Made by a program: the position numbers and the translations under genes. 64,000 nucleotides of DNA. Source: Desulfomonilia bacterium. Lineage in GTDB: Bacteria > Desulfobacterota > Desulfomonilia > UBA1062. Positions 1 to 25,298 of the stretch are shown in pieces; the first letter of the stretch is position 1, and the number at the start of each line of letters is the position of its first letter. The notes beneath the pieces were generated by a model. It worked only from the letters and a program-made list of their open reading frames with translations. It ran no database searches and was not told the origin of the DNA. The stretch spans positions 480,001 through 544,000 of the forward strand of contig CAXXDQ010000007.1 in NCBI GenBank assembly GCA_963664325.2, in the 5' to 3' direction.

Positions 1-98
1 TTTTCTTCATCCTGATAGATAACATCGGGGTTGTAGAGAATTGCACCATCTTCTCCCTCGTCCCGGAATGATATGTCAGGGGTCGCTTAATACTTCAA
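1..98 (-). pseudogene. 5' part of a disrupted PqqD/RRE-family gene, runs off the window
   Basis: Manual translation from TTG at 98 (overlapping the upstream stop): MKY*ATPDISFRDEGEDGAILYNPDVIYQDEE. TAA at 87-89. NPDVIYQDE is identical to the protein at 796..1083. Confidence 0.65.
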
Positions 99-346
99 AA
101 ACCACTCCCTACAGTAAGACAAGTCGTAGGGCTATTACCACTTGAATCACAATCGCCTATAGCGCCTATTCCATTGGCATAACAAGCTTGCATTGCTCCA
201 TTACCATTCGTAATGCAATCTTGAACATCCCCTGAACCAGCCCCAACACAATCACCCATAGATTTACGGGTGCCATCCAGCCTCATTACCTTCGGCGCTT
301 CGTAAACAGGCCTCACATCATTGACATTCTTTTTTTCTCTTGCCAT
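95..346 (-). CDS. Cys/Gly-rich RiPP precursor peptide (SynChlorMet ScmA-like), 83 aa
   Basis: ATG at 346 preceded by AAGGAGAGG. Leader carries YEAPKV (Y-x-x-P RRE-binding type). Core has five Cys spaced C-x10-C-x10-C-x10-C-x9-C, with C-x3-G repeats. PqqD genes on both sides. Confidence 0.8.
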   Translation of the reverse strand: MAREKKNVNDVRPVYEAPKVMRLDGTRKSMGDCVGAGSGDVQDCITNGNGAMQACYANGIGAIGDCDSSGNSPTTCLTVGSGF

Positions 347-392
347 TATCCTCTCCTTGTTTTTAACCAATAAGCAGGGTTCGCTTTATACC

Positions 393-641
393 TCAAAAAC
401 CACTCCCATCAGTAAGATAATTTACAGGGCTATTACCACTTGCTTCACAATCTCCTATAGCGCCTGATCCAGAAGCATGACAAATATCTATTGCACCATT
501 ACCATACGAAAGGCAATTTTGACCATCACCTTAACCCGCCGTACATTCCCCTAAAGATGTTCGGGTGCCGTCCAGTCTCATTACCTTTGGCGCTTCGTAA
601 ACAGGCCTCGCATCATCGAGATGCCTTTTTTCTTTTGCCAT
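393..641 (-). pseudogene. Second precursor peptide paralog with in-frame TAA
   Basis: Manual translation: MAKEKRHLDDARPVYEAPKVMRLDGTRTSLGECTAG*GDGQNCLSYGNGAIDICHASGSGAIGDCEASGNSPVNYLTDGSGF. TAA at 531-533 aligns with TCA (Ser) of the first copy. SD GGGAGGGG. Confidence 0.85.
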
Positions 642-795
642 TTTCCCCTCCCTTATCTTTATCCAATAAGAATGAGCAATATCTTATAATCTCAAAATTT
701 AAAAGGATGGGAAGTCAACATTCGTAGTACAGCAAACCATTACAATTTTAAAGATCTTCCAATCCGGCAACCGGCGGGCAAATTTGTCATAAGCA

Positions 796-1083
796 TCAAT
801 ACTCCACCTTATATCCGAAAAAACCGTTTGCCCTGAGGTTATCGATCAGTCCGGCAACATCATTATCAATATCATCAGGCACGCTTGAAAAGCTCTCTTT
901 TATAAGACCGATTATCTTTCCCACGCTTTTCCTACCGTCAGCCGCCTTCCAGATTGATTTGCCCGTACTGTTAACGGCAATCGAATTGCCAGTGTCCATA
1001 TTGACCAGAACGGCCCAGCCATCATCCTCATCCTGATAAATCACGTCCGGGTTCGGATACGGTATATACTCGTAATTTGACAT
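796..1083 (-). CDS. PqqD-family RiPP recognition element protein (ScmD-like)
   Basis: 95 aa with the PqqD pattern NPDV..E.DGWAVL...DTG....VN.TG..IWK..DG..SV..I....F..VP......V..LI..L...G. Confidence 0.85.
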   Translation of the reverse strand: MSNYEYIPYPNPDVIYQDEDDGWAVLVNMDTGNSIAVNSTGKSIWKAADGRKSVGKIIGLIKESFSSVPDDIDNDVAGLIDNLRANGFFGYKVEY

Positions 1084-1089
1084 ACCAAT

Positions 1090-1118
1090 AATCTATAAAA
1101 TTATTCTCAGACTGTAAA
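1090..1118 (-). promoter_or_regulatory. Candidate sigma70 promoter of the PqqD gene (possibly leaderless)
   Basis: TTTACA-17 bp-TAGATT, ending 6 nt before the ATG at 1083; no Shine-Dalgarno present. Confidence 0.4.
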
Positions 1119-1227
1119 ACAAAAAAACATCAACTTTATCATGGATTCATTTCATAATGCACAGTGAATAATAAACATATTTCCCGGACCAATCCTCGCC
1201 TCAAACCACACCTTAAATCTTTTCTTC

Positions 1228-2100
1228 TCATCTGGATTTTGAAAAGTCTCCGCGCAGATACGGGACAAGCGAACTTATGACAAACCAGGCAAAGGCCGCA
1301 AGGATTACTGTGGCGCCTGTAGCGGTATAGGCCCATTCCTGAGCGGAAATTATCAGGCCGGCTGCGGCCGACGTTATGCTTATCAGAACCGCCCACCAGA
1401 ACATGGCGCCGGCCGTGCGGGACAGATTCCTTGCCGCAGCAGCAGGTACAATGAGAAGGGCCGTTACAAGCAGAACCCCCACTGCCCTTACCGAAAAGAT
1501 CACCACGACTGAAAGCAGCGCGGCATACATGTACTGATAAAAAGCGACCTTTATCCGGTGCGCCCTGGCAAGTGCATGGTTGAGTCCGATATAAAACAGA
1601 CGGTTGTAGCTGAAACCCATAAAAACAATGATGATAAGGGCAAGGGCTGCAAGCCTTAATATATCGCCGGTGCTTATGGACAATATGTCGCCATACAAAA
1701 AGATCTGCATATCGCGGGCTACGCTGCGGTCGCGGCTGACTATCGCAATTCCGAATGCTACGACGGCGGAAAAGAAAACACCTACAACAGTATCCATGGA
1801 AAGCTTGCTTTTCCGCTGCATCACCGTAATGGAAAGTCCGACAATCAGGGCGAATACGACCATAGTAACTGAAGGGTTCATTGATGCCATCAATCCTATG
1901 GCGACTCCTGTAAAGGCCGAATGGCTTATTGCATCAGAGAAAAACGCCATCCTGAAATTTACGACCTGTATGCCCATGACAGCGGCCATCGGCGCCAGAA
2001 GCAAGAGCCCGACAAGCGCCTGCTGCATGAACCTTGCTTCCATACATTCGAAAGGAAGCGCCAGAGGTATGATACCGTAAACAGCTGACAGGTCAGGCAT
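1228..2100 (-). CDS. znuB: Zn/Mn ABC transporter permease
   Basis: Hydrophobic; DAISHSAFTG, LYGDIL and VGVLLVTALLIVPAAAAR motifs; start at MPDLS overlaps the znuC end. Confidence 0.9.
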   Translation of the reverse strand: MPDLSAVYGIIPLALPFECMEARFMQQALVGLLLLAPMAAVMGIQVVNFRMAFFSDAISHSAFTGVAIGLMASMNPSVTMVVFALIVGLSITVMQRKSKLSMDTVVGVFFSAVVAFGIAIVSRDRSVARDMQIFLYGDILSISTGDILRLAALALIIIVFMGFSYNRLFYIGLNHALARAHRIKVAFYQYMYAALLSVVVIFSVRAVGVLLVTALLIVPAAAARNLSRTAGAMFWWAVLISITSAAAGLIISAQEWAYTATGATVILAAFAWFVISSLVPYLRGDFSKSR

Positions 2101-2899
2101 TCGCAACACCCCCGCCATTTTCCTCATCACATTCTGTACAACCGTCCTTTATCGGCCTGAAGCTGAGCTCTCCGATATGAGGACCGAACATGTCAAGCAG
2201 TATGCCCTTGTTGAAAATGTCTTTCGGCGCACCTTCCGCAATCAATTTCCTATTGAGGCAAATCACATGGCTAGCATGGTAGGCCACCATTCCCAGATCA
2301 TGGCTGACCATAAGCTGGGTAAAGCCTTTTTCAATTCTGAGGTGCTCAAGGAGATGGCAGAAAACCTGGCCTCCTTTCATATCAACACCGGCGTCAGGTT
2401 CATCAAGAACAAGGATTTCCGGATCCCTCTGAATGGCAAGAGCCAGCAGAACCCTCTGCATCTCTCCGCCTGAAAGAGCACCGAGTCTTCTTCTCAAAAG
2501 GTGCTCGGCCTTTACCGAATAAAGCAGTTGAGAGGCAGTCTCCTGCATGCTTCTGTCTATTCCGAGCCAGAACGGTTTTTTCTGAACACCCATGGACAGG
2601 AATTCGATTACGGTTAAAGGAATACCCCTGTCAAAGGCGAACCGCTGCGGGACATAACCTATTCTGACTCCGCTCTTTGAATCATGTGAATAAATTCTAA
2701 TATCGCCTCTGTATTTTATCTCGCCGAGCAGAGCAAGCAGCAGCGTTGTTTTCCCGGCGCCGTTCGGGCCTATGATTGCCGTGCACTCTCCCTCAGGGAC
2801 ATCCGCATTTATATTCTCAAGGATCGACACCCCTCCCATTTCCACGCCTAAATTTTTAAATTGAATGGCTGACTTAACGGACAGATGTTCTTTTTCCAT
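2093..2899 (-). CDS. znuC: Zn/Mn ABC transporter ATP-binding protein
   Basis: GPNGAGKT, IGYVPQR, LSGGE, LVLDEP, VSHD. Confidence 0.92.
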   Translation of the reverse strand: MEKEHLSVKSAIQFKNLGVEMGGVSILENINADVPEGECTAIIGPNGAGKTTLLLALLGEIKYRGDIRIYSHDSKSGVRIGYVPQRFAFDRGIPLTVIEFLSMGVQKKPFWLGIDRSMQETASQLLYSVKAEHLLRRRLGALSGGEMQRVLLALAIQRDPEILVLDEPDAGVDMKGGQVFCHLLEHLRIEKGFTQLMVSHDLGMVAYHASHVICLNRKLIAEGAPKDIFNKGILLDMFGPHIGELSFRPIKDGCTECDEENGGGVANA

Positions 2900-2900
2900 T

Positions 2901-3854
2901 CTATTTCTTCCCCAGTGTCACTTTTAATGTCTCTATGTTTTTCATCATAACCATTTCATAATAGTTGAGGCCTGCATTTTCAGGGCCCGTGGCAACAGGG
3001 TCGAGTATTGCTGACGGTATGCCGGCCTCTTTTGCTATAACCTGCGGCACCTTTGATGAATACTGGGGTTCATAAAAAACGGCGCCCGCCTTATATCTCT
3101 TGACTTCCCTTATTATTGAAAGCATCTCCGATGCCGACGGTTCCTGGCCGGGATGCGACTCTATAACGGCAACTATATCAAGACCTGCATCGCGCGCCAG
3201 ATAATCGAACACCCCGTGCTGGGTAACGATATTCCTGTTTTTAAGCATCTTAACCGATGAAACGAAATTATCCGACAGGCGGTTCATTTTTGAAGCATAG
3301 GCCTTTGCATTCCTGTTGTAGGTTTCAGCCCCGCCGGGGTCGGCTTTTGAAAGAGCCGAGGCTATGTTCATGGCAAGCTGACCACACATACGGGGGCTTG
3401 CAAAAAGGTGCGGGTTTACACCTTCATGATGATGGTCCTTGACCTTGTCATGGCCCGTCAGAATCTGACCGCCATCCGCGTTTCCGAGAAGGTTTTTTAT
3501 GCCCGCCGAACTGTCAACAACCCTCAACCGGCTGTTCGCCTTCCCGAGAATCGTGTCCATGAACTCCTCCATCCCCAGACCGTTTATTATAAGGATATCC
3601 GCCCTGGAAATCTTTTGCATGTCCTTCGGCGTCAAGGAATAATCATGCGGGCACCCGGATGCCGGAGGCAGCATCAATTCGACTTTGACCGCAGCATTTC
3701 CCTGAACGACATTCCTGGTTATCTGATAAACGGGAAAAGTGCTGCAGAGGACTTCCATCTTTTTCCCTGACGAATAAACCTCGCCGGTCATCAGAAATGA
3801 CAATAGGAAAATACAGCTCATAATGATGGCCTTCATTTCACACTTTCCAATCAT
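2901..3854 (-). CDS. znuA: Zn ABC transporter substrate-binding protein
   Basis: Signal peptide, CPHDY, NGLGME, His-rich loop DHHHEGVNPH, VTQH. Confidence 0.9.
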   Translation of the reverse strand: MIGKCEMKAIIMSCIFLLSFLMTGEVYSSGKKMEVLCSTFPVYQITRNVVQGNAAVKVELMLPPASGCPHDYSLTPKDMQKISRADILIINGLGMEEFMDTILGKANSRLRVVDSSAGIKNLLGNADGGQILTGHDKVKDHHHEGVNPHLFASPRMCGQLAMNIASALSKADPGGAETYNRNAKAYASKMNRLSDNFVSSVKMLKNRNIVTQHGVFDYLARDAGLDIVAVIESHPGQEPSASEMLSIIREVKRYKAGAVFYEPQYSSKVPQVIAKEAGIPSAILDPVATGPENAGLNYYEMVMMKNIETLKVTLGKK

Positions 3855-3878
3855 TTACCGGCCCCTTTAAAATAGCTT

Positions 3879-3898
3879 ATTGCAAACTCATTTGCATT
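3879..3898. promoter_or_regulatory. Candidate Zur/Fur-family operator
   Basis: Palindrome TGCAAA-CTCA-TTTGCA (3881-3896) between the divergent znuA and Fur-family genes. Confidence 0.6.
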
Positions 3899-3973
3899 AT
3901 GATTATTAACAATAAACATGTCAATCGTTATTGGGATTTAGCTCATAACAATAAATTTCAAGAAGGTTTAGGA

Positions 3974-4351
3974 ATGTACAAGCGAAACACATCTCGAAGA
4001 AAACTGCTTGAGGAGATCATGTCATCAAGCGCAACCCCTTTAAGTGTTCAGGATATCTTATCCAAAGGAAGGGCGCGGATCAAGTCGCTAAACCAGGCCA
4101 CCGTTTACAGAAACCTGAAGATTCTCGTAGAAAACGAACGGCTGAAGGTCATCTCCCACCCGGCGCTGGGCCATCTCTATGAAATGAAGGAAAAGGACCA
4201 TCACCACCACTTTTATTGTCAGAAATGCGATAAGGTCTACCAGCTTGACGGCTGCCCGCTGAAGAAAACAGGTATTTCACCACCAGGATTTGTGCTTGAG
4301 GACCATGAAGTGTACCTCTCGGGCATCTGTGCAGACTGCAACAGAAGCTGA
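3974..4351 (+). CDS. zur: Fur-family transcriptional regulator, likely Zur
   Basis: ATVYRNL, HHHHFYCQKC and C-terminal CADC; divergent from znuABC; ATG 3974 after AGGA. Confidence 0.8.
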   Translation: MYKRNTSRRKLLEEIMSSSATPLSVQDILSKGRARIKSLNQATVYRNLKILVENERLKVISHPALGHLYEMKEKDHHHHFYCQKCDKVYQLDGCPLKKTGISPPGFVLEDHEVYLSGICADCNRS

Positions 4352-4354
4352 GGA

Positions 4355-5728
4355 CTATTCCGGCTGAGTTTTCTTTTTCCTTTCTTCAAGCTGCCTCCTT
4401 ACCTCTTCATGGCTTTCCTTTGTAATGGGCAGGAGCTTTACGAAGACACCGGAAATGATGAAAAATATCCCGGGACCGATGCCGATCATAACCCTTATGC
4501 AGGTAAGCGCTGCCTGAGGTTGTGGCAGCGTGCTGTTTTCCATATAGCCGAATATACCCATCAGCATGGATGCAGCCCATATCACAATTCCGGTAAGGAT
4601 GGTCAGCAGTGAGAATGTTACGCCGTAAAAGGCCCCTTCCCTCCTAACGCCGTTTGAGAGTTCGTCAAACTCGATGACGTCGGGCATCATGGAAAAAGGG
4701 ATCACCTGGGTAGCAGAAATACCGATGCCGGCAAGCCCGCAAAGGATGCCTGCGGCAGCGATATTCGATGGCGGCAGGAAAAGCGCGCTCAACATTACGA
4801 TAACCATATATGCCATTGCCAGGAAAAACGCCGTCTTCTTTCCCTTCTTCTCGCCGATGTAAACCCAGAGCGGAGCGGCGACAACCGCAGTGATCAGCGG
4901 CAGGCCCAGCAGTATGTAGGTCATGCTTTCAGGCATTTTCAGAACGTCCTTCAGATAGAACAGAAAAAGGCATTGTATGAGATTGAATCCCAAGAGGTTC
5001 ATTATGAACATGGTGATGGCTATCCTCGATTCCCTGAGCTTCATGATGGAGCCTATGATCCTGAACATGCCGCCTGTGACTTCGGCCTCTGACTTCACCC
5101 TTTCCTTTGTCCAGAAAAACGTTATCAGAAGAGAGACCAGGAAAACCGCTCCGCCGATCAGGCCCATGACGGGATAGCTTTCTCTGTAAAACTCCCTGCC
5201 CTTGTATATTTCGTCTACGATAAGGGCGACGCCTGCGGCGCCTATGAGATTTCCCACGAAAGTGAGCCCCATCCTTATCCCGGATATGCTGGTACGCTCG
5301 TCATAATTCATAGAAAGTTCCGGCATGAGAGAATTGTAAGGCAGCGCCACAAAGGTATAAATGGTGACATAGAGCACGTATACAACTGAAAAATATATGA
5401 TGTTGGACATATGACCGCTGAACGGGACGACCCATAAAAGCACGAACAGGACCGAAACCGGCAAAGAGCCGAAAATTATGAAGGGCCTTCTCCTGCCGAA
5501 CCTTGTCTCCGTCCTGTCGGATATCATCCCGACAATAAAGTTCAGCACGGCATTATAGATATTGACCGCCAGGAATATGCTTCCTGCAAGCTTGGCGGGC
5601 ACCCCTGTAACGTTGATGACGAAATACAAGAGATAAAAACTTACCGCGGTGAATACGACATTGATGCCGAAATCTCCTATGCCGTATGCGAACTTTTCCC
5701 AGAGCGGAACGACAAATCCCGGTTTCAT
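4355..5728 (-). CDS. MFS GPH (MelB-like) sugar:cation symporter
   Basis: YGIGDFG, SDRTETRFGRRRPF, PYNSLMPELS..YDERT, DVIEFDE..GVRREG. Confidence 0.88.
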   Translation of the reverse strand: MKPGFVVPLWEKFAYGIGDFGINVVFTAVSFYLLYFVINVTGVPAKLAGSIFLAVNIYNAVLNFIVGMISDRTETRFGRRRPFIIFGSLPVSVLFVLLWVVPFSGHMSNIIYFSVVYVLYVTIYTFVALPYNSLMPELSMNYDERTSISGIRMGLTFVGNLIGAAGVALIVDEIYKGREFYRESYPVMGLIGGAVFLVSLLITFFWTKERVKSEAEVTGGMFRIIGSIMKLRESRIAITMFIMNLLGFNLIQCLFLFYLKDVLKMPESMTYILLGLPLITAVVAAPLWVYIGEKKGKKTAFFLAMAYMVIVMLSALFLPPSNIAAAGILCGLAGIGISATQVIPFSMMPDVIEFDELSNGVRREGAFYGVTFSLLTILTGIVIWAASMLMGIFGYMENSTLPQPQAALTCIRVMIGIGPGIFFIISGVFVKLLPITKESHEEVRRQLEERKKKTQPE

Positions 5729-5934
5729 GCATACTCCCTTCTCAAAGGCAGACAGATCATGATTCATTATATTATTCCAGAAACATCATGAATTCAATTA
5801 TTCTGTTCCGGGTGCAAAATCATGCTTGCCCTTTCATAACTGTTGACCGCAGCCTAATGCAAATGTATGAATAACTGGCCTGATCAAAGGCATGATCAGA
5901 TAAAATAATATCAAGAAACTGGGGAGGTAGTATT

Positions 5935-7101
5935 ATGAAAGGATTAAGATTTCTGGCAGTTTTTCTCTTATGCGCATTGATTGCAGCACCAGCAACGGCG
6001 GCAAATAACGAACCCATCAAGATAGGGGCGATACTGGGAGTCACCGGACCTGCGGCCAACCTGGGAAAACCCGAGGCCAACACACTTGAAATGCTTACAG
6101 CCGATATCAACAAGAAGGGCGGCATCAACGGCCGCAAGATACAGCTCATAATCAAGGATTCGGCGGCAAGTCCCGAAAAGGCCATCTCTTTTGCAAAACA
6201 GCTCATAGATGAAGACAAGGTCGTTGCGATAATCGGCCCGTCGACCAGCGGCGAGTCCATGAAAATCAAAGGCATTGCAGAAGACGGCAAAACCATACTG
6301 ATGTCATGCGCCGCAGCTGAAGCGATTGTCGTTCCCGTCAAGAAATACATATTCAAGACGCCTCAGAACGACAGGTTCGCAGCCATGAAAATTTTCTATC
6401 AGATGAACAAGATGGGCATCAAACAGATAGCAATCCTCTCAAGCAATACCGGCTTCGGCAATGCGGGGAAACAGCAGCTTGAGAACATCGCACCCCAGTA
6501 CGGAATCTCTATCGTCGCAAACGAGGTCTATGACAAGGAAGCGACCGACCTTTCGGCAGTCATTACAAAAGTCAAGACCGCAGGGGCCCAGGCCATTGTC
6601 AACTGGTCGATAGAACCAGCGCAGTCCATAGTGATAAAGAACGCCAGGCAGGCGCTCGGGCCAAAATTCCCCATCTTTCAGAGTCATGGATTCGGCAACA
6701 TAAATTATGTCAAGGCGGCCGGGCCTGCTGCAGATGGCGTGATTTTCCCTGCAGGCAGACTCCTCATTGCCAACCTGCTGCCTAATACCAACAAGCAGAA
6801 ACCCGTCCTTTTGAAGTACAAGAAGGACTACGAAGCCAGCTACAAGGAAGAAGCCAGCACATTCGGCGGCCACGCATACGATGCCTTTACAATACTGGTT
6901 TCGGCGATCAGAAAGGCCGGAACAGACAATGAAAAACTCCGCACTGAAATAGAAAACATGAAAGGTCTTGTAGGGACTGCGGGTATTTTCAATTTCTCTC
7001 CCTCTGACCACAACGGCCTTAACATGGATTCTTTCGTAATGCTTACGGTAAAGAACGGCAAATTCGTCCCTCTACCGGACACCCCGGTAAAAACGAAATA
7101 G
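5935..7101 (+). CDS. Liv-type ABC substrate-binding protein
   Basis: Signal peptide, PIKIGAIL..TGPAA, INKKGGINGRKI; first gene of a HAAT operon. Confidence 0.9.
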   Translation: MKGLRFLAVFLLCALIAAPATAANNEPIKIGAILGVTGPAANLGKPEANTLEMLTADINKKGGINGRKIQLIIKDSAASPEKAISFAKQLIDEDKVVAIIGPSTSGESMKIKGIAEDGKTILMSCAAAEAIVVPVKKYIFKTPQNDRFAAMKIFYQMNKMGIKQIAILSSNTGFGNAGKQQLENIAPQYGISIVANEVYDKEATDLSAVITKVKTAGAQAIVNWSIEPAQSIVIKNARQALGPKFPIFQSHGFGNINYVKAAGPAADGVIFPAGRLLIANLLPNTNKQKPVLLKYKKDYEASYKEEASTFGGHAYDAFTILVSAIRKAGTDNEKLRTEIENMKGLVGTAGIFNFSPSDHNGLNMDSFVMLTVKNGKFVPLPDTPVKTK

Positions 7102-7113
7102 TTCCTAATAACC

Positions 7114-7141
7114 GGGATGAGGTTTATTCATGCCTCATCCC
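7114..7141 (+). other. Intercistronic stem-loop after the binding-protein gene
   Basis: GGGATGAGG-10 nt-CCTCATCCC followed by TTT. Confidence 0.55.
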
Positions 7142-7158
7142 TTTACCTAACCAAAGGC

Positions 7159-8049
7159 ATGGGCATAGAAACCTTTTTCCAGTATATAATAGCAGGAATC
7201 ACCTACGGTACGATCTACGCAATTGTAGCCATCGGCTTCAACATCATCTACAACGCCACAGGGATAATAAATTTCGCGCAGGGCGAATTTGTAATGCTGG
7301 GGGCAATGACGGCAGTTACGCTTAACGAATACATGCCTCTGCCTGCCGCAATAATCTGCGCCGTTATCATAACAATGATGATAGGGGCTCTCATCGAAAT
7401 CCTCTTCATACGCTGGCTCAAAAACCCGGCCGTTCTGAGGCTCACGATAATAACCATCGGACTTTCTATTCTGATAAGGGAGGCGGCCCTTCACATCTGG
7501 GGTGCGGGTGTCAGATCACTGCCCTATTTTACAGGCACCGCCGTCACCACGATATCCATTGGAGGCGTGCTTGTATCCCCGCAGATACTATGGGTGATTG
7601 GTGTCTCCGGGATAATGGTTCTGATCCTGAGCTTCTTTTTCAATTATACACTCGCAGGCAAGCAGATGAGGGCCTGCTCATCGAACAGCGATGCCGCAAG
7701 ACTGTGCGGAATCAATGCAAAAAACATGGTAAGCCTTTCCTTCATATTGAGCGCAGGTCTCGGGGCGCTTGCGGGGTGCGTCGTGTGCCCGATCACCTAT
7801 GTCCAGTATGACAGCGGAACCAGCCTGGCAATCAAGGGCTTCACGGTGGCGATCCTGGGCGGTCTCGGAAACAGTCCCGCCGCAATAGCCGCCGGAATGA
7901 TCCTGGGCATCATGGAATCGTTCTCCATATGCATAATGCCTACGGCGTACAAGGACGTCATAGCCATCACCCTGCTCCTTCTGATACTTTTCGTGAGGCC
8001 TTCAGGCCTGTTCGGAAACGCCGAAACCTCACGCCTGAAGGAGTTCTGA
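7159..8049 (+). CDS. livH: HAAT ABC permease
   Basis: GIINFAQGEFVMLGA, GKQMRA, AILGGLGN. Confidence 0.9.
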   Translation: MGIETFFQYIIAGITYGTIYAIVAIGFNIIYNATGIINFAQGEFVMLGAMTAVTLNEYMPLPAAIICAVIITMMIGALIEILFIRWLKNPAVLRLTIITIGLSILIREAALHIWGAGVRSLPYFTGTAVTTISIGGVLVSPQILWVIGVSGIMVLILSFFFNYTLAGKQMRACSSNSDAARLCGINAKNMVSLSFILSAGLGALAGCVVCPITYVQYDSGTSLAIKGFTVAILGGLGNSPAAIAAGMILGIMESFSICIMPTAYKDVIAITLLLLILFVRPSGLFGNAETSRLKEF

Positions 8050-9131
8050 TGTTCACAGGCAAGAATTATCAGATCGGTCTTCTGGTCTTCATTGTGATAG
8101 CGATACAGCTGCTGATTACTTTTGCGGGCAAAACGCCTTATCTGACCCAGCTTACCATGACCGGCTATTATTCCATGGTCATCATAGGACTTACCCTTCT
8201 GATGGGGTATACAGGTCAGATATCTTTGGGGCATGCCGGTTTCTTTGCTATAGGAGGCTACACTTCCGCCTTCCTGACAACATTCAATATGCTGCCATAC
8301 AAGGCAAAGTCTCTGGTGGCATTTCTTAACAACATAGGGTTGCTTACGCTCCGCAAGGACCTTTACGAAACGGACATACTCACAATGACTCCATGGGCGG
8401 CATGCATTGCCGCAGTCCTTCTGAGTGTCGTTATCGCCTGGATAATCGGCAGGCCGGTGCTCAAACTCAAGGGACACTACCTTGCCATGGCGACGCTCGG
8501 CTTCGGTACGATAATATACAAAATCGTGCTTGCAACCACTTTCCTGGGTGCTGCGGACGGAATTTCCGACATACCTGGCTTCTGTATTTTTCCGGGTCTG
8601 GAGGTAAGCGGAAAGTCGTCCCTTCGCATAGAGAATTATTATATAGCATGGGGTCTTGTAGTCATAAGCATGATTCTGCTTACGAACCTTATACATTCCA
8701 GGGTCGGCCGCGCGCTGCGATCCATACATGCGGCCGAGGACGCATCCAATGCCATGGGCGTGAACACCTCCCAGTACAAACTGAAGATATTTATCCTGAG
8801 CGCGGCGCTCGCCTCCCTGGGCGGCGTGTTCCTTACGCATTTCAACGGCGGCATAGGACCCTCGGAAGCCTCCATCATGAAGTCTGTCAGATATGTGGCT
8901 ATTGTGGCAATCGGAGGCATGGCAAACCTCTGGGGTGCATTGTTCATGGGTGTGCTGCTTAATTTCCTTTCCCTAAGGGGTTACCTGGGCTCATATGACG
9001 ATGCGGTCTTCGGTGCGATACTTATTGTTATAATGCTCTTTGCCCCTGACGGGCTTTTAAGAAAAGAACTGTTCACCGGCATACCGGATAAGCTGAAACA
9101 CATGGTTAAAAGAAAGGGGTCTTCGGCATGA
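8049..9131 (+). CDS. livM: HAAT ABC permease
   Basis: GYTGQISLGHAGF, LKGHYLAMATLGF, SRVGRALRSI; TGATG coupling at 8047-8051. Confidence 0.9.
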   Translation: MFTGKNYQIGLLVFIVIAIQLLITFAGKTPYLTQLTMTGYYSMVIIGLTLLMGYTGQISLGHAGFFAIGGYTSAFLTTFNMLPYKAKSLVAFLNNIGLLTLRKDLYETDILTMTPWAACIAAVLLSVVIAWIIGRPVLKLKGHYLAMATLGFGTIIYKIVLATTFLGAADGISDIPGFCIFPGLEVSGKSSLRIENYYIAWGLVVISMILLTNLIHSRVGRALRSIHAAEDASNAMGVNTSQYKLKIFILSAALASLGGVFLTHFNGGIGPSEASIMKSVRYVAIVAIGGMANLWGALFMGVLLNFLSLRGYLGSYDDAVFGAILIVIMLFAPDGLLRKELFTGIPDKLKHMVKRKGSSA

Positions 9132-9898
9132 TAATCCTCGAAGCCGGCAACCTCAATAAACGCTTCGGCGGTCTGCAGGCCGTAGGAGATGTCAGTTTCA
9201 CTGTCAGGGAGGGTACAATCAAGGCGCTTATCGGCCCGAACGGCGCAGGCAAAACCACGCTCTTCAACCTTCTTACCGGCGTGATCCCTCCCGATTCCGG
9301 CAGGATAGTGTTTAATGGACGAGAAATCCAGCGGGCCCATCCCTACATCGTGGCAGAGCTTGGAATGGCGCGTACATTCCAGCATATCAGGCTCTTTTCA
9401 GGAATGACCGCCATCGAGAACATCATGGTAGGTAGGCACACGCACAGCAGGTCTGGTTTTATCTCCTGCATGCTGGGCCTTCCCCCTACGGGAAAAGAAG
9501 AAAAATTCATAAAGGAAAAATCCTTTGAAATAATGAAATTCCTCGGCATCGAGGAACATGCGCATACCAATGCCGCAAGCCTTGCCTACGGCCAGCAGCG
9601 GATAGTTGAACTGGGCCGGGCGCTGGCATGCGAGCCGAAGCTTCTACTTCTTGATGAACCTGCCGCAGGGCTCAACATGAGAGAGACAGCAGAAATGGCA
9701 AAGCTCATCATGAAGATCAGGGATACGGGCATTACAGTGCTTATCGTCGAGCACGACATGAGTCTTGTCATGAACATCTCGGATGAGATACTCGTCTTGA
9801 GCTACGGCCAGAAGATAGCCGATGACATACCCTTGGCGATACAGAAGAATCCCGAAGTTATCAGGGTATACCTGGGGGAGGACGATGCTCAGGCTTAG
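9128..9898 (+). CDS. livG: HAAT ABC ATP-binding protein
   Basis: FGGLQAV, GPNGAGKT, ARTFQ, LAYGQQR, LLDEPAAG. Confidence 0.92.
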   Translation: MIILEAGNLNKRFGGLQAVGDVSFTVREGTIKALIGPNGAGKTTLFNLLTGVIPPDSGRIVFNGREIQRAHPYIVAELGMARTFQHIRLFSGMTAIENIMVGRHTHSRSGFISCMLGLPPTGKEEKFIKEKSFEIMKFLGIEEHAHTNAASLAYGQQRIVELGRALACEPKLLLLDEPAAGLNMRETAEMAKLIMKIRDTGITVLIVEHDMSLVMNISDEILVLSYGQKIADDIPLAIQKNPEVIRVYLGEDDAQA

Positions 9899-11974: not shown

Positions 11975-12427
11975 ATGGAAAATGAAACCGTAAACAAAAA
12001 ACGGAAAAAGATTATATTGACTGTCATATTTGCCGTGTTTGTAATTTCAGGAGTCAGCATCCAGTTCCCGAACCTGATCCACGACTACCGGGCAAAAAGC
12101 TTTGTCAAAAAATGGGTCCCGGTATTCACAAACTGCAGATCTCTAAACTGTATCTATACAACCTCCGGCATGAGCCCGGATTTTTTTTACAAAAGGACTT
12201 TTGAAAACGGCGAATGGGTAATTGCCATAAATGCCGATTCATGCAGTGGAGTGGGCGGCTTCAATACCTCCATATTCTACGGCAGTGACGGCGCCCTCTA
12301 TTACCAGACCGGATATAAATACTGCGGCCAGGCCGTTTTCACGAAAGAACTGAACAGCATCAGGGAAAGCGAACTTACTCGATTCTATGACAAGCTCCCC
12401 TACAGGCTTCATCAATGGAAAGGGTAA
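11975..12427 (+). CDS. Hypothetical membrane-anchored protein
   Basis: Basic N-terminus, one hydrophobic helix, then a Cys-containing domain; SD GGGGTG. Confidence 0.7.
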   Translation: MENETVNKKRKKIILTVIFAVFVISGVSIQFPNLIHDYRAKSFVKKWVPVFTNCRSLNCIYTTSGMSPDFFYKRTFENGEWVIAINADSCSGVGGFNTSIFYGSDGALYYQTGYKYCGQAVFTKELNSIRESELTRFYDKLPYRLHQWKG

Positions 12428-12457
12428 GATATAAGCTGGGGCCGGTTAAAAATATTA

Positions 12458-12489
12458 ACGGAGGAACAGGGCTGGCCCCGTTCCTCCGT
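12458..12489. terminator. Stem-loop between convergent genes
   Basis: ACGGAGGAAC...GTTCCTCCGT arms followed by a T-rich tract. Confidence 0.7.
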
Positions 12490-12506
12490 CTTTAATACTC
12501 TTTTAA

Positions 12507-14225
12507 TTATGGAACCTGTACACTCATGCCGCCTTCATTGGCACGTACAAAATCAAGCAGGCGGCCGAAAACCTGGTTGGGTCTGCGGTATGGCCGGTCC
12601 GCCGCGGCAAAGAGCACATCAAGATGGTTGTATCCCTGAAGAAGGGGATCCGTGCGAACCGGAAAATTGATGATCGGGAAGGTGTTCAGGATATCCCCAT
12701 GAAGAAAGTTGAGCCCGTAATTCTTGTTGAATGAAGCTGCCGCAGCCTGCGAATCCAGGCTGATGCGGTTGGTGAAGTACCATTCCATGAAGTTCGACGG
12801 TCCCCGGTACTGGGCAAGTGAAAAGTCCTTGATATCGGTGACTTCTTCCTGCCAGGTGGTATAGGTGAGCTTTCCGGTGGTGTCTCTGTAATCAGGATGG
12901 TCGGCATTGCCGACCTGGTCGAATGGCACCCAGGAATAAAGCGGCCCCGTTCCAAGGGCATCAGCGGGACCAGCATTCCAGGCAATGAATTCGCCGTCCT
13001 TTTTTATAACACTGCCCAGGCCGAGCAGGTCTGCCAGAGAACCTGGAAAATCCTTCTTAACAACGGCCCCGCCCTGGAGGAACCCCAGGCTGGCCTGGAG
13101 GAAGGTGACCGGCTGGAAGTTGTCATCGAGGAAGACACCCAGGAGGGCCTCGTTGGTATAGCGGAAATCATTAAGCGACGGGCTGCCGGACAGATAATGG
13201 CAAAGGCTGCGTGAATGCAGCAGCTTGATCAGGTTCTTTGTTGCCTGTGAATAGTTGACTGTCCTGAAAGTTGTGGCTTCCTCGTCCGGGTGCATATAAG
13301 CGTTCATGGCGAGGATTTCCAGCAGGGCCATGGCCTCTGGCGTCACTCCGGTAAATAGGTTGAGCCGCTTCGCCTCGCCGGTACGGATCTGGTTCAGGGT
13401 ATCGAAGTAGGTTTGCTCGTCCATGGTGCTTGTGCGGGGACCGACATTGCCGTCCAGGCCTATCAGACCTGCGCAGTTCATATAACCCGCATCATTGAGT
13501 GTGGCCGGATTGGCGTCGAAGTCCCATCCGGCAAAGAAGGATGTAAACGTCCCCCCCATGGAATGTCCGCCTATGAAGACGCACTGCCTGCGTGCTTCGG
13601 GTTCCGGAATCTTGGTGGTGATGACAGTCCAGACATCTTTCATCAGGAGTTCGAGACCGAATTCGGAAAGCACGGCCAGGTCGGCATCGCTGTGGAAACC
13701 CTTAAAGGATTCACCGTCAACAGTACCGCCATTGAAGTAGTAGTCGACCGCGATCTGCGGGTCTGAATTATCCTCGGCTGCATTCATGCCCGTTAGATCC
13801 TCCATGCAGTTGCCCCGACGCTCCATGGCCCACACCTCCACGCTGCCCAGGGTATCATCAGCTTCGGCCATGGAAACGATCTGCCGGCCCAGATAATCAA
13901 AGCTGTTGGCCCCTCCCATGTAGCCAGGAATGAGCACAATGACAGCCTTGACGGGCTTGGGCTGAGCTTCCCCTTCCCCGGTCGCAGGACGATAGCGCAG
14001 GAAACGGATATAATCGCAGTCCCAGTCGCACTTGAATTCTGTCGGCACCGAACCGTTGGTGCGTGGATAAGGTGCATAAATCATCTCTTCCTGGACAATG
14101 ACTTTCTGTTCGACGGGTACTATGATCGCAGTTTCTACAGGAGCCTCGGGAACCGGCCCGCCTGGCAGATAACATGACGCGGCAAACAGGAGCACGATAC
14201 ACAAGGTCAATACTATACGTTTCAT
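12507..14225 (-). CDS. Lipoprotein, alpha/beta-hydrolase fold
   Basis: Lipobox-like AASC, IPGYMGG oxyanion loop, GGHSMGG nucleophile elbow, C-terminal YNHLD. Confidence 0.8.
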   Translation of the reverse strand: MKRIVLTLCIVLLFAASCYLPGGPVPEAPVETAIIVPVEQKVIVQEEMIYAPYPRTNGSVPTEFKCDWDCDYIRFLRYRPATGEGEAQPKPVKAVIVLIPGYMGGANSFDYLGRQIVSMAEADDTLGSVEVWAMERRGNCMEDLTGMNAAEDNSDPQIAVDYYFNGGTVDGESFKGFHSDADLAVLSEFGLELLMKDVWTVITTKIPEPEARRQCVFIGGHSMGGTFTSFFAGWDFDANPATLNDAGYMNCAGLIGLDGNVGPRTSTMDEQTYFDTLNQIRTGEAKRLNLFTGVTPEAMALLEILAMNAYMHPDEEATTFRTVNYSQATKNLIKLLHSRSLCHYLSGSPSLNDFRYTNEALLGVFLDDNFQPVTFLQASLGFLQGGAVVKKDFPGSLADLLGLGSVIKKDGEFIAWNAGPADALGTGPLYSWVPFDQVGNADHPDYRDTTGKLTYTTWQEEVTDIKDFSLAQYRGPSNFMEWYFTNRISLDSQAAAASFNKNYGLNFLHGDILNTFPIINFPVRTDPLLQGYNHLDVLFAAADRPYRRPNQVFGRLLDFVRANEGGMSVQVP

Positions 14226-14342
14226 AAGAAACCTCCCTGTTTTGTAATCAAACACTTACAAAGTCATAAAAATAAACTATTGTAATAGTAATAATAGCAT
14301 AGTCTGATGTCAACCTGTTAAGGATTCCCTGGATTTGACGCG

Positions 14343-24039: not shown

Positions 24040-25298
24040 TAGCCCCTTATCTATCCGTCCATAACCTCATAAGGCAGTTTGCTTCATCGCTTCTGCTCAT
24101 GAAGACCGCCAGGTGGAAACACTTCCCCCTGTGGCTGAGCAGAAACGCCTGGAAGTCCATACCGGTTGCAGGCGGCGCCGTCGGCATGGGCTGTATCGGG
24201 TTCGGATATCATGCAGTCTGGGAAGTCACAGAAGCCTGCAACCTCAGATGTCTGCACTGCCACGCCACAAGCAGTGTGGCATCATCCGATGAACTCGATA
24301 CCAAGGAGGGTTTCAGACTGCTAGAACAGATACACAGACTGAAGGGATTCCAGATGCTCGCATACTCGGGCGGTGAACCTCTTGTGAGGAAAGACATCGA
24401 CGATCTGCTTGCATACGGGAAAAAGCTGGGTCTGGTTAATGTAATCGCAACAAACGGCACGCTTATAGATTATCCACGGGCCCGGGAACTGAAAAAACTC
24501 GGCGTTAAAGGCGTCGCCGTAAGTTTCGATTCCACGGACCCTGATATACACAACAGCATCAGGCAGAGCCCGACCGCCTTCGATCGCGCGATACGCGGGA
24601 TAGAGGCCTGCAAAAAGGCGGGCATTATAGTTCAGCTGAACTATACGGCAATGAAGGAAAATATCGGGACCCTGGCTGAAGTGGTGAAGTTCGCCCATGA
24701 TATCAATGCAGCCATCATGCTCTGCTATCAGCTAGTACCCATGGGCAGGGGCGGCGCAATTGCATGTTCTGCCCTCTCCCCTGAAGACAACAGGCTTCTG
24801 ATGAACAGTGCAAGGAAACTCCAGGCTGATGCGGTAACCATTGTCGAGCCTGTTGCAGGACCCCAATACTGGGCGCATCTTCTACGAAGGGACAACAGGA
24901 ATCCGAAGCGCCTTATAAGGCACAGCCCATTCCATGGCTGTGCAGCAGGATGGGGACTTGTTTACATAAAGCCCAACGGCGAAGTATGGCCCTGCCCTTT
25001 TGTCCCTGTAAGCGGTGGAAATGTCCGCTCAAGCAGTCTTTCCGACATTCATAAGAAAAGCGACATATTCAGAAAACTCTCGGACAGGAATAACCTTAAG
25101 GGAAAATGCGGCGAGTGTGAGAACAGGCATGTCTGCGGAGGCTGCCGTGGAAAGGCCTATGCCGCCTGCGGTGATGCCCTCGAAACCGATCCCACCTGTT
25201 ATATACACTTTACTGAAATGCCGGAATATCTGAAATGGGCTTCAAATACAGCTGTCGCCGGTGATGCGCCGGGAGGAGGCACGGGAAGCTGCGGTTGA
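24033..25298 (+). CDS. Radical SAM/SPASM protein (NirJ/AhbD-like)
   Basis: WEVTEACNLRCLHC, SGGEPL, ATNG; SPASM GCAAG..PCP..CGEC...CGGC..C; start overlaps the prenyltransferase stop. Confidence 0.9.
   Translation: MVIAPYLSVHNLIRQFASSLLLMKTARWKHFPLWLSRNAWKSIPVAGGAVGMGCIGFGYHAVWEVTEACNLRCLHCHATSSVASSDELDTKEGFRLLEQIHRLKGFQMLAYSGGEPLVRKDIDDLLAYGKKLGLVNVIATNGTLIDYPRARELKKLGVKGVAVSFDSTDPDIHNSIRQSPTAFDRAIRGIEACKKAGIIVQLNYTAMKENIGTLAEVVKFAHDINAAIMLCYQLVPMGRGGAIACSALSPEDNRLLMNSARKLQADAVTIVEPVAGPQYWAHLLRRDNRNPKRLIRHSPFHGCAAGWGLVYIKPNGEVWPCPFVPVSGGNVRSSSLSDIHKKSDIFRKLSDRNNLKGKCGECENRHVCGGCRGKAYAACGDALETDPTCYIHFTEMPEYLKWASNTAVAGDAPGGGTGSCG

Follow-up and report, generated by a model that had tools for sequence, protein, structure and literature searches.

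The 64,000-nucleotide stretch analysed here (the window; positions 480,001 to 544,000 of contig CAXXDQ010000007.1 of a Desulfomonilia bacterium, or C7:480001-544000 in our numbering) carries at its left edge, in window 1-1083, the upstream part of an operon that spans about 5.9 kb on the minus strand, and we have little doubt that this operon is a cassette of the SynChlorMet (SCM) kind for a ribosomally synthesized peptide with post-translational modifications (RiPP). All genes of interest lie on the minus strand, so that the window's left edge cuts through the operon; the remainder is found in locus L001 (C7:466001-484000; an L001 coordinate is the window coordinate plus 14000). The genes run in the order PqqD1, psiA2, A1, psiPqqD2, A3, PqqD3, ScmE-like, ScmF-like and ScmC::S26 peptidase. 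A first-pass annotation, made from the letters of the window, had placed the maturases of the proposed peptide left of the window or elsewhere in the genome, and two radical S-adenosylmethionine (SAM)/SPASM genes do lie to the left on the same strand; among the other genes that it looked for on that side, an ScmC-like gene fused to a peptidase is present, together with a third precursor and a third PqqD gene, but no exporter was seen in the flanks read. It had also tied its proposal to a link between homologous peptides and radical SAM enzymes, and we find ScmE/ScmF-like genes beside such peptides in 12 of 17 related loci and in 8 of the 9 precursor-positive genomes of a phylum sample (in one of these, L036, as a ScmF-like gene only). 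The SynChlorMet-like layout that it noted stands as far as the gene order and the best-matching models are concerned, but NCBIfam scores place the cassette in a sister clade of SynChlorMet rather than as an equivalog, only ScmC passing its cut-off. Taken as a whole, a SynChlorMet-like RiPP operon working by the mechanism proposed below is likely to be the best explanation of the locus.

Organization of the cassette

The first gene of the cassette, PqqD1 (window 796..1083; minus strand, as are all features in this section), encodes an intact stand-alone PqqD/RiPP recognition element (RRE) protein of 95 aa that matches PF05402. It is followed by psiA2 (window 393..641), a full-length paralog of A1 reduced to a pseudo-precursor by one in-frame TAA (531-533), by the precursor A1 itself (window 95..346; 83 aa, with leader, S-M-G junction and five Cys modules), and by psiPqqD2, a frameshifted PqqD pseudogene whose 5' end occupies window 1..49 and which tblastn follows, in two frames, to about C7:479779. 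Left of the window stand precursor A3 (L001 13417-13683), PqqD3 (L001 12999-13277), the radical SAM/SPASM genes ScmE-like (L001 11906-13012; 368 aa) and ScmF-like (L001 10743-11909; 388 aa), and a gene for a protein of 509 aa in which an ScmC domain is fused to an S26 peptidase domain (L001 9199-10728). PqqD3 and ScmE overlap by 14 nt and ScmE and ScmF by 4 nt, and a gap of 14 nt separates ScmF from ScmC, a spacing of the four genes that is consistent with translational coupling.

The same-strand paralog and the two PqqD-type genes that had been read in the window are therefore all present, but the paralog at 393-641 is broken by its stop codon, and only the PqqD gene at 796-1083 is intact, the second being frameshifted and running off the left edge. 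The stop of psiA2 falls at the Ser of A1's A-G-S-G-D, and a Tyr stands instead of the last Cys; psiA2 matches the precursor profile described below (E 1.5e-18, with the one internal TAA) and is 61.5% identical to A1 (tblastn). In psiPqqD2, residues 11-55 and 46-95 of PqqD1 align in two different frames (tblastn), an in-frame start ahead of the conserved N-P-D-V-I-Y-Q is lacking, and the open reading frame (ORF) pieces left are 38, 32 and 26 aa long. The stretch L001:12900-15200 is letter-identical (0 differences) in contigs from three runs of one sample, which are not independent samples and may share that sample with the assembly itself; because the stop and the frameshift are reproduced in the contigs of all three runs, they are not errors of one single assembly. 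In the two closest relatives, at 83-86% ScmE identity, a single precursor simply stands between PqqD1 and PqqD3, indicating that the psiA2-A1-psiPqqD-A3 array is a lineage-specific tandem expansion, partly decayed already.

Between A3 and PqqD3 lies a terminator-like hairpin (L001 13369-13398; an 11-bp stem with 6 G-C pairs and a T-rich tail), which could make precursor transcript more abundant relative to that of the enzymes. In a scan for promoters and terminators the counts equalled those of shuffled sequences (14 versus 10.9, and 6 versus 5.9), this hairpin alone being notable, and an Rfam scan of L001 and four loci of orphan precursors (see below) gave 0 matches.

A precursor family with cysteine modules

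The reading frame of A1 is open from window 95 to 370 and would yield 91 aa from a TTG at 370 or 83 aa from an ATG at 346; the Shine-Dalgarno sequence AAGGAGAGG lies 3 nt ahead of the ATG, and every precursor copy is preceded by a strong Shine-Dalgarno sequence. The first description of A1 as an 83-aa peptide with a leader and five Cys at a near-perfect period of 11 holds for this ORF, in which the Cys are residues 33, 44, 55, 66 and 76 (83-aa form, counted by hand) and the gaps between them 11, 11, 11 and 10. Its leader reads K-x-x-x-x-R-P-V-Y-E-A-P-K-V-M-R-L, its junction S-M-G, and its core is built from five C-x3-G-x-G modules, each 10 or 11 residues long. When 5 Cys are placed at random in a core of 52 residues, all four gaps are 10 or 11 in 160 of 2,598,960 arrangements (hand count).

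We aligned 14 precursors, in which Y15, P18, C33, G37, C44, G48 and C55 (A1 numbering) are invariant. Common to the family are a leader of the form K-P-x-Y-E-x-P, a junction, [G/A]-x-G, whose distance from the leader Tyr is fixed, and C-x2-3-G-[S/N]-x-A modules 10 or 11 residues in length. The profile built from this alignment, which A1 matches at E 3.3e-23, retrieves 1780 representative proteins at E<=0.001 among 1.84 billion, 38 of them at E<=1e-10. Our detailed statistics refer to the 144 short proteins among the best 150 matches; the six longer than 140 aa were set aside, one of them (P0011) being an unrelated eukaryote-like repeat protein. The motif [YFW]xxP is present in 140 of the 144, the commonest Cys number is 5 (72 proteins; range 3-9), and 532 of the 597 Cys-Cys gaps measure 10 or 11, so that, judged on these sequences, the Cys periodicity of the family exceeds chance. 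The module consensus is C-x2-3-G-[S/N/G]-x-A-x3: where the gap is 10 residues, Gly stands at +3 in 94% and Ala at +6 in 66% of cases, and where it is 11 residues, Gly stands at +4 in 75% and Ala at +7 in 58%. The first Cys mostly lies at Tyr+18 or +19, and the Gly at Tyr+16 (89-94%) and the Gly/Ala at Tyr+14 keep their positions whatever the distance to that Cys. The tail beyond the last Cys is 7 or 8 residues long in 87 of the 144, indicating that a G-[S/N]-x unit follows every Cys, the last one included. The best conserved Ser, at Tyr+22 (77%), is the one that follows the first module's first G.

No Pfam or NCBIfam model matches A1 or A3; a word-indexed protein search with A1 returned A1 itself only (1 of 2 candidates), and the ESM Atlas returned only unnamed 'hypothetical protein' clusters (0.92-0.93). 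Within its own genome the profile has 8 matches, of which three belong to the cassette and five are orphans, all intact (two on C5, one on C4, and one each at C7:899786 and C3:991408). The genome thus holds 7 intact precursors and only one strong ScmE match, which suggests that one enzyme set serves all seven. Three of the orphans (C5:185890-186606 and C4:230174-230620; loci L022-L024) have some 130 nt of conserved sequence in common upstream of their start codons, with no Rfam match, and a GT1-family glycosyltransferase gene adjoins the pair on C5.

Recognition proteins and enzymes

PF05402 is matched above its cut-off of 23.4 bits by both PqqD1 (50.2 bits, E 3.3e-13) and PqqD3 (34.9 bits), in keeping with the PqqD assignment first given to 796-1083, and ScmD (TIGR04248) is the best NCBIfam match of both, but at scores short of the ScmD cut-off, to which we return below. 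Orthologs of PqqD1 occur in 7 other loci, with 15 invariant columns; two distinct PqqD paralogs, each with its own invariant residues, lie upstream of ScmE in 8 loci, and L008 encodes a 210-aa protein with two PqqD stretches. For both PqqD profiles the best solved relative is LppB (9x8z; E 7.7e-7 for PqqD1 and 1.5e-4 for the other), which ranks ahead of the lasso B1 proteins and of PqqD. A complex prediction for PqqD1, PqqD3 and A1 scored 0.22 against a mark of 0.32 and is evidence neither for nor against their association.

The ScmE-like enzyme has its CX3CX2C motif at C25/29/32 and SPASM Cys at 267, 285, 328, 331, 337, 341 and 360, all invariant in 15 of 15 sequences; the corresponding residues of the ScmF-like enzyme (C41/45/48, and C275, 292, 338, 341, 347, 351 and 369) are invariant in 17 of 17. 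Pfam Radical_SAM matches both enzymes and Pfam SPASM matches ScmE only. The best solved relatives of the two are PqqE, SkfB, SuiB and anSME (E 1e-7 to 1e-15), with PqqE at the top for ScmE (E 6.8e-15) and anSME among the relatives of the ScmE SPASM part. By these matches both proteins fall among the peptide-modifying SPASM/twitch enzymes, a placement from which their reaction is not readable. The window contains one other radical SAM/SPASM-like frame (24222-25199, plus strand; 453 aa, 100.5 bits to the ScmE model), which is unrelated to the cassette.

The ScmC domain of the fusion protein passes its own model (TIGR04249; 153.7 bits against a cut-off of 125) over residues 81-272, corresponding to model positions 99-292 of 292. 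In structure comparisons with VIA-align, residues 105-282 of the predicted structure superpose on the catalytic domain of HprK/P (1knx_E: Z 11.6, root mean square deviation 3.6, 128 residues; 2qmh_A: Z 11.8; 128-130 residues aligned across the HprK/P comparisons), and the whole N-terminal half superposes on PEPCK (Z 12-12.8), which also provides the top Foldseek matches (E 2.8e-6); on the predicted model, the fold of the ScmC domain is that of HprK/PEPCK. Eight fusion proteins all keep the Walker A sequence G-x-x-G-K-[S/T]-T-A-S and, 16 residues further on, a D-D pair, the invariant columns including G131, K132, T134, A135, S136, D148 and D149. The peptidase half matches the archaeal-type signal peptidase I model (sigpep_I_arch; 60.6 bits against a cut-off of 51.85), its profile matches SEC11C (E 7.9e-15), and S312, H353, D368 and D374, of the SipW/Sec11 type, are invariant. 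Because the fusion has no hydrophobic segment (maximum Kyte-Doolittle(19) value 1.02, versus 2.60 for ZnuB), its peptidase is predicted to be soluble, unlike the membrane signal peptidases. ScmC and the peptidase are fused in 8 loci and are separate genes in L011 and L013.

Related loci

The 17 related loci carry the cassette in a like order (PqqD, two radical SAM/SPASM genes, ScmC), on contigs labelled as metagenome-assembled genomes of Desulfocapsaceae, Syntrophorhabdaceae, Chloroflexota, Anaerolineales, Cytophagia, Elusimicrobia, Verrucomicrobia and others. The canonical loci (L013, L014, L015 and L017) score 550-626 bits for ScmE and 504-585 bits for ScmF and have one PqqD gene; L002-L012 and the window's own locus score 365-402 and 299-338 bits, respectively, the closest relative, L002, reaching 402.4 bits for ScmE. 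The look-alike precursor genes of the 12 loci that have them are found between PqqD genes, between ScmF and ScmC, or upstream. No look-alike precursor was found in L005, L008, L014, L015 or L017, of which L005 ends inside ScmF and L017 soon after.

In a sample of 121 genomes of the phylum, ScmE is found in 7 (E<=1e-80), the precursor profile matches in 9 (E<=1e-6), and both are found in 2, an apparent mismatch that dissolved once the loci were fetched. Among the seven 'ScmE-negative' genomes, six carry a ScmF-like gene next to the peptide (35-40% identity); it is accompanied by a more divergent ScmE-like gene (29-34%) in five, and in the sixth, L036, the sequence breaks off within the ScmF-like gene. 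The remaining one, L040, is a contig of 6.7 kb from a genome that is 62% complete; its profile match (G087:C108:5784-5984) has two internal TGA codons, no cassette genes come into view on the short contig, and the match may be a pseudogene or have TGA read as a residue. Five canonical genomes lack a profile match; a Cys-rich YxxP-type peptide lies near the cassette in two of them (L044 and L047), and our filter found none near the canonical cassette in L043, L045 and L046. Five loci (L035, L037, L038, L039 and L041) form a third and more divergent clade, with ScmE/F-like pairs (29-34% ScmE identity) and Cys/Gly-rich YxxP precursors; L041 has two such precursors, of 85 and 114 aa.

Comparison with known systems

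Our search of the openly available literature found no paper on the SynChlorMet cassette and no known product of it. The system is catalogued in NCBIfam (TIGR04248 ScmD, TIGR04249 ScmC, TIGR04250 ScmE, TIGR04251 ScmF and TIGR04252 ScmA) and the cassette described here is hence not categorically new; it is a variant clade. The catalogued set comprises PqqD, two PqqE-like radical SAM/SPASM enzymes, ScmC, a Cys-containing precursor and an S26 peptidase. Both gene set and order match here, the best NCBIfam model of each enzyme is the SCM model, and precursors of canonical loci such as L013 align with those of the window. The clade differs from canonical SynChlorMet in its two PqqD paralogs, the ScmC-peptidase fusion, longer precursors and, mostly, five modules.

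The linear polyphosphorylated peptide (LPP) system of Bacillota (LppA/B/K/S; Nat Commun 2026, PMC13381572, on which all statements about LPPs rest here) provides a second comparison. LppK polyphosphorylates Ser3 of the core, and LppS cuts the YxxP leader only with the RRE LppB, after residue Tyr+15. It is the LPP system that the RRE, kinase-like and peptidase parts of our cassette resemble most: a discrete RRE and a SipW/Sec11-type peptidase with a Ser/His/Asp triad are present, beside a domain with a putative HprK-like fold, and the cut predicted here, at Tyr+16, is one residue from the tested Tyr+15 of LppS. In contrast, radical SAM is not mentioned in PMC13381572, the LPP clusters described in it have no radical SAM enzymes, and their cores are variable and not Cys-periodic; moreover, the LPP core genes include a nucleoside triphosphate (NTP) transferase plus an MsbA-like exporter, and neither was seen among the genes scanned here. 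Since LppB is the best solved relative of both PqqD profiles, we take the cassette to combine two SPASM enzymes with an LPP-like module for recognition, kinase and peptidase functions.

Sactipeptide and ranthipeptide pathways, which we take to include those of SkfB, CteB and PapB/freyrasin, share with the cassette radical SAM/SPASM enzymes and Cys-rich ribosomal substrates, and SkfB is among the best solved relatives of the enzymes here; freyrasin has a repeated C-x3-D, which the short repeated Cys modules of our precursors recall. The cassette differs from these pathways in having two radical SAM enzymes, RREs that stand alone rather than fused, and the module C-x2-3-G-[S/N]-x-A. The Crp system of Methanococcus voltae (PMC13692751) likewise uses radical SAM/SPASM enzymes on Cys-rich ribosomal substrates. 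The pyrroloquinoline quinone (PQQ) system (PqqA/PqqD/PqqE) resembles the cassette in pairing a stand-alone PqqD with a PqqE-like SPASM enzyme, but the scores here are 118 against a cut-off of 381 for the PqqE model and 32.1 against 46 for PqqD, and the precursor is unrelated to PqqA.

Proposed maturation and alternative explanations

We propose that the PqqD proteins, to judge from their sequences, would bind the leader at its Y-E-x-P-K-V-x-x-L motif and hand the peptide on to the enzymes, the two paralogs perhaps each serving one enzyme block. ScmE and ScmF would modify each module, joining each Cys to an acceptor within the next seven or so residues. The first-pass annotation had suggested a multiply thioether-crosslinked or metal-binding product; of the possible modifications we favour thioethers, most likely one per Cys and hence five small rings in A1, a choice that we put at a little short of an even chance. 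By analogy with LppK, the ScmC domain might phosphorylate a Ser, a proposal whose chances we regard as evenly balanced. The fused soluble peptidase would remove the leader after the Gly at Tyr+16, between G31 and D32 of A1, in an RRE-dependent manner as LppS does; the predicted site has small residues at -1 and -3 and lies at a fixed distance from the RRE motif, and a cut at G31 or within one residue of it is slightly the better bet. The same enzyme set would probably mature all seven intact precursor genes. It is somewhat unlikely that these features amount to an undescribed RiPP class, in which two SPASM enzymes would form a ring in each 10/11-residue module, release would be gated by a fused kinase-like/soluble-peptidase protein, one PqqD paralog would serve each block, and one enzyme set would serve at least seven precursors; if such a class were real, the scattered precursors would be a small natural peptide library.

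A number of results weigh against this proposal. The ScmE model (TIGR04250) gives 391.7 bits over the full length (E 2.7e-117) and the ScmF model (TIGR04251) 313.6 bits, both below the cut-off of 400, and ScmD gives 54.4 bits for PqqD1 and 21.7 for PqqD3, below its cut-off of 100. With the ScmA model TIGR04252 (cut-off 35 bits), none of the 40 candidates scored across the whole genome gave a match at E<=10, and the model matches 4 of the 14 aligned precursors weakly (best E 5.8e-4). The predicted structure of ScmC::S26 is middling (mean predicted local distance difference test 68.7, predicted template modelling score 0.53), and comparison of sequences yields no significant link to HprK (1knx, E 1.5) and no match to a Pfam kinase family. 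No exporter and no NTP transferase were seen among the genes at C7:472448-481083 or the ORFs of window 1-6000. The modules have no invariant acceptor residue (+4 and +5 being S, N or G), and outside the close clade there is no conserved Ser near the junction. With two dead genes among the five copies of the expanded part, the precursor/PqqD array may be decaying. Finally, the closest solved radical SAM relatives catalyse different reactions (C-C bonds by PqqE, a sactionine by SkfB, a Lys-Trp link by SuiB, and Cys/Ser oxidation by anSME), and the chemistry of the product cannot be read from sequence.

The genes around the cassette invite another explanation, in which the mature peptide stays inside the cell as a metal ligand rich in free thiols, such as a chelator related to zinc or Fe-S, or as something like a cofactor; the two radical SAM enzymes would then act on residues other than Cys, in the manner of PQQ or mycofactocin biogenesis. 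A gap of 144 nt separates the cassette from znuA-znuC-znuB, which lie directly upstream on the same strand (window 1228-4351, minus strand), with a divergent Fur-family gene beyond (3899-4351); DUF134 and NifX-like genes follow it here, in L002 and in L003, no exporter was seen in the flanks read, and PqqE is the best solved relative of ScmE. Of the 17 related loci, however, only L002 and L003 keep the znu/Fur neighbourhood, and the remaining 15 all lack it. Among 51 proteins scanned from the flanks of 12 distant loci, no metal genes recur, and instead ABC (ATP-binding cassette) exporters occur in 3 (L008, L013 and L016), NTP_transf_5 genes in 2 (L010 and L013) and extra PqqD genes in 3. A zinc link as a trait of the family is therefore rejected, and Cys that keep so strictly to a spacing of 10/11, each of them, the last included, followed by a conserved G-[S/N]-x-A, suit a module recognized by an enzyme better than a chelating site. 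We consider the metal-ligand explanation unlikely.

A linear peptide made by an LPP-type pathway, phosphorylated and perhaps glycosylated, with radical SAM enzymes that bring about epimerisation, Cys oxidation or other non-crosslinking changes and form no rings, is quite unlikely too. The module of RRE, HprK-like and SipW-like proteins is the one tested for LPPs (PMC13381572), the NTP_transf_5 genes of L010 and L013 fit such a pathway, and so does the presence of anSME among the solved relatives of the ScmE SPASM part; yet the LPP clusters described in that paper are without radical SAM, what characterizes the cores here is invariant Cys at even spacing, and a full seven-Cys SPASM region is typical of the peptide-modifying enzymes in our match lists. 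It would be extremely improbable for the small ORFs to be chance frames in low-complexity DNA and for the radical SAM pair to act elsewhere: the missing Pfam and NCBIfam models for A1 and A3, the word-indexed search that found A1 alone and the profile's match to the eukaryote-like P0011 point that way, but each copy has a strong Shine-Dalgarno sequence, Tyr, Pro, Cys and Gly are invariant across phyla, the leader motif recurs throughout the short matches (140 of 144), and the peptides lie beside the enzymes in most loci.

Preferring, then, the SynChlorMet-like RiPP operon, we see four uses for the locus. It pins down the SynChlorMet substrates and shows that they make up a peptide family of very large size, whose module is simple and can be counted; it ties the accessory genes to their only tested relatives, the LPP kinase, peptidase and RRE of 2026 (PMC13381572); its tandem array, with two dead copies, together with the five orphans illustrates the expansion and decay of substrate families; and it allows bench predictions of the cleavage site, the mass shift per module, the phosphate and the RRE-enzyme pairing.

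Further observations at related loci

The canonical locus L014 contains two SCM cassettes on opposite strands within 15 kb (7001-9204, plus strand; 12093-14258, minus strand), and both of its ScmE copies are above the cut-off. In L010 (3962-7960), the genes downstream of ScmC::S26 are a pair of NTP_transf_5 genes and one whose product has amidotransferase and Asn-synthase domains, together reminiscent of the tailoring genes of lasso peptides and LPPs.

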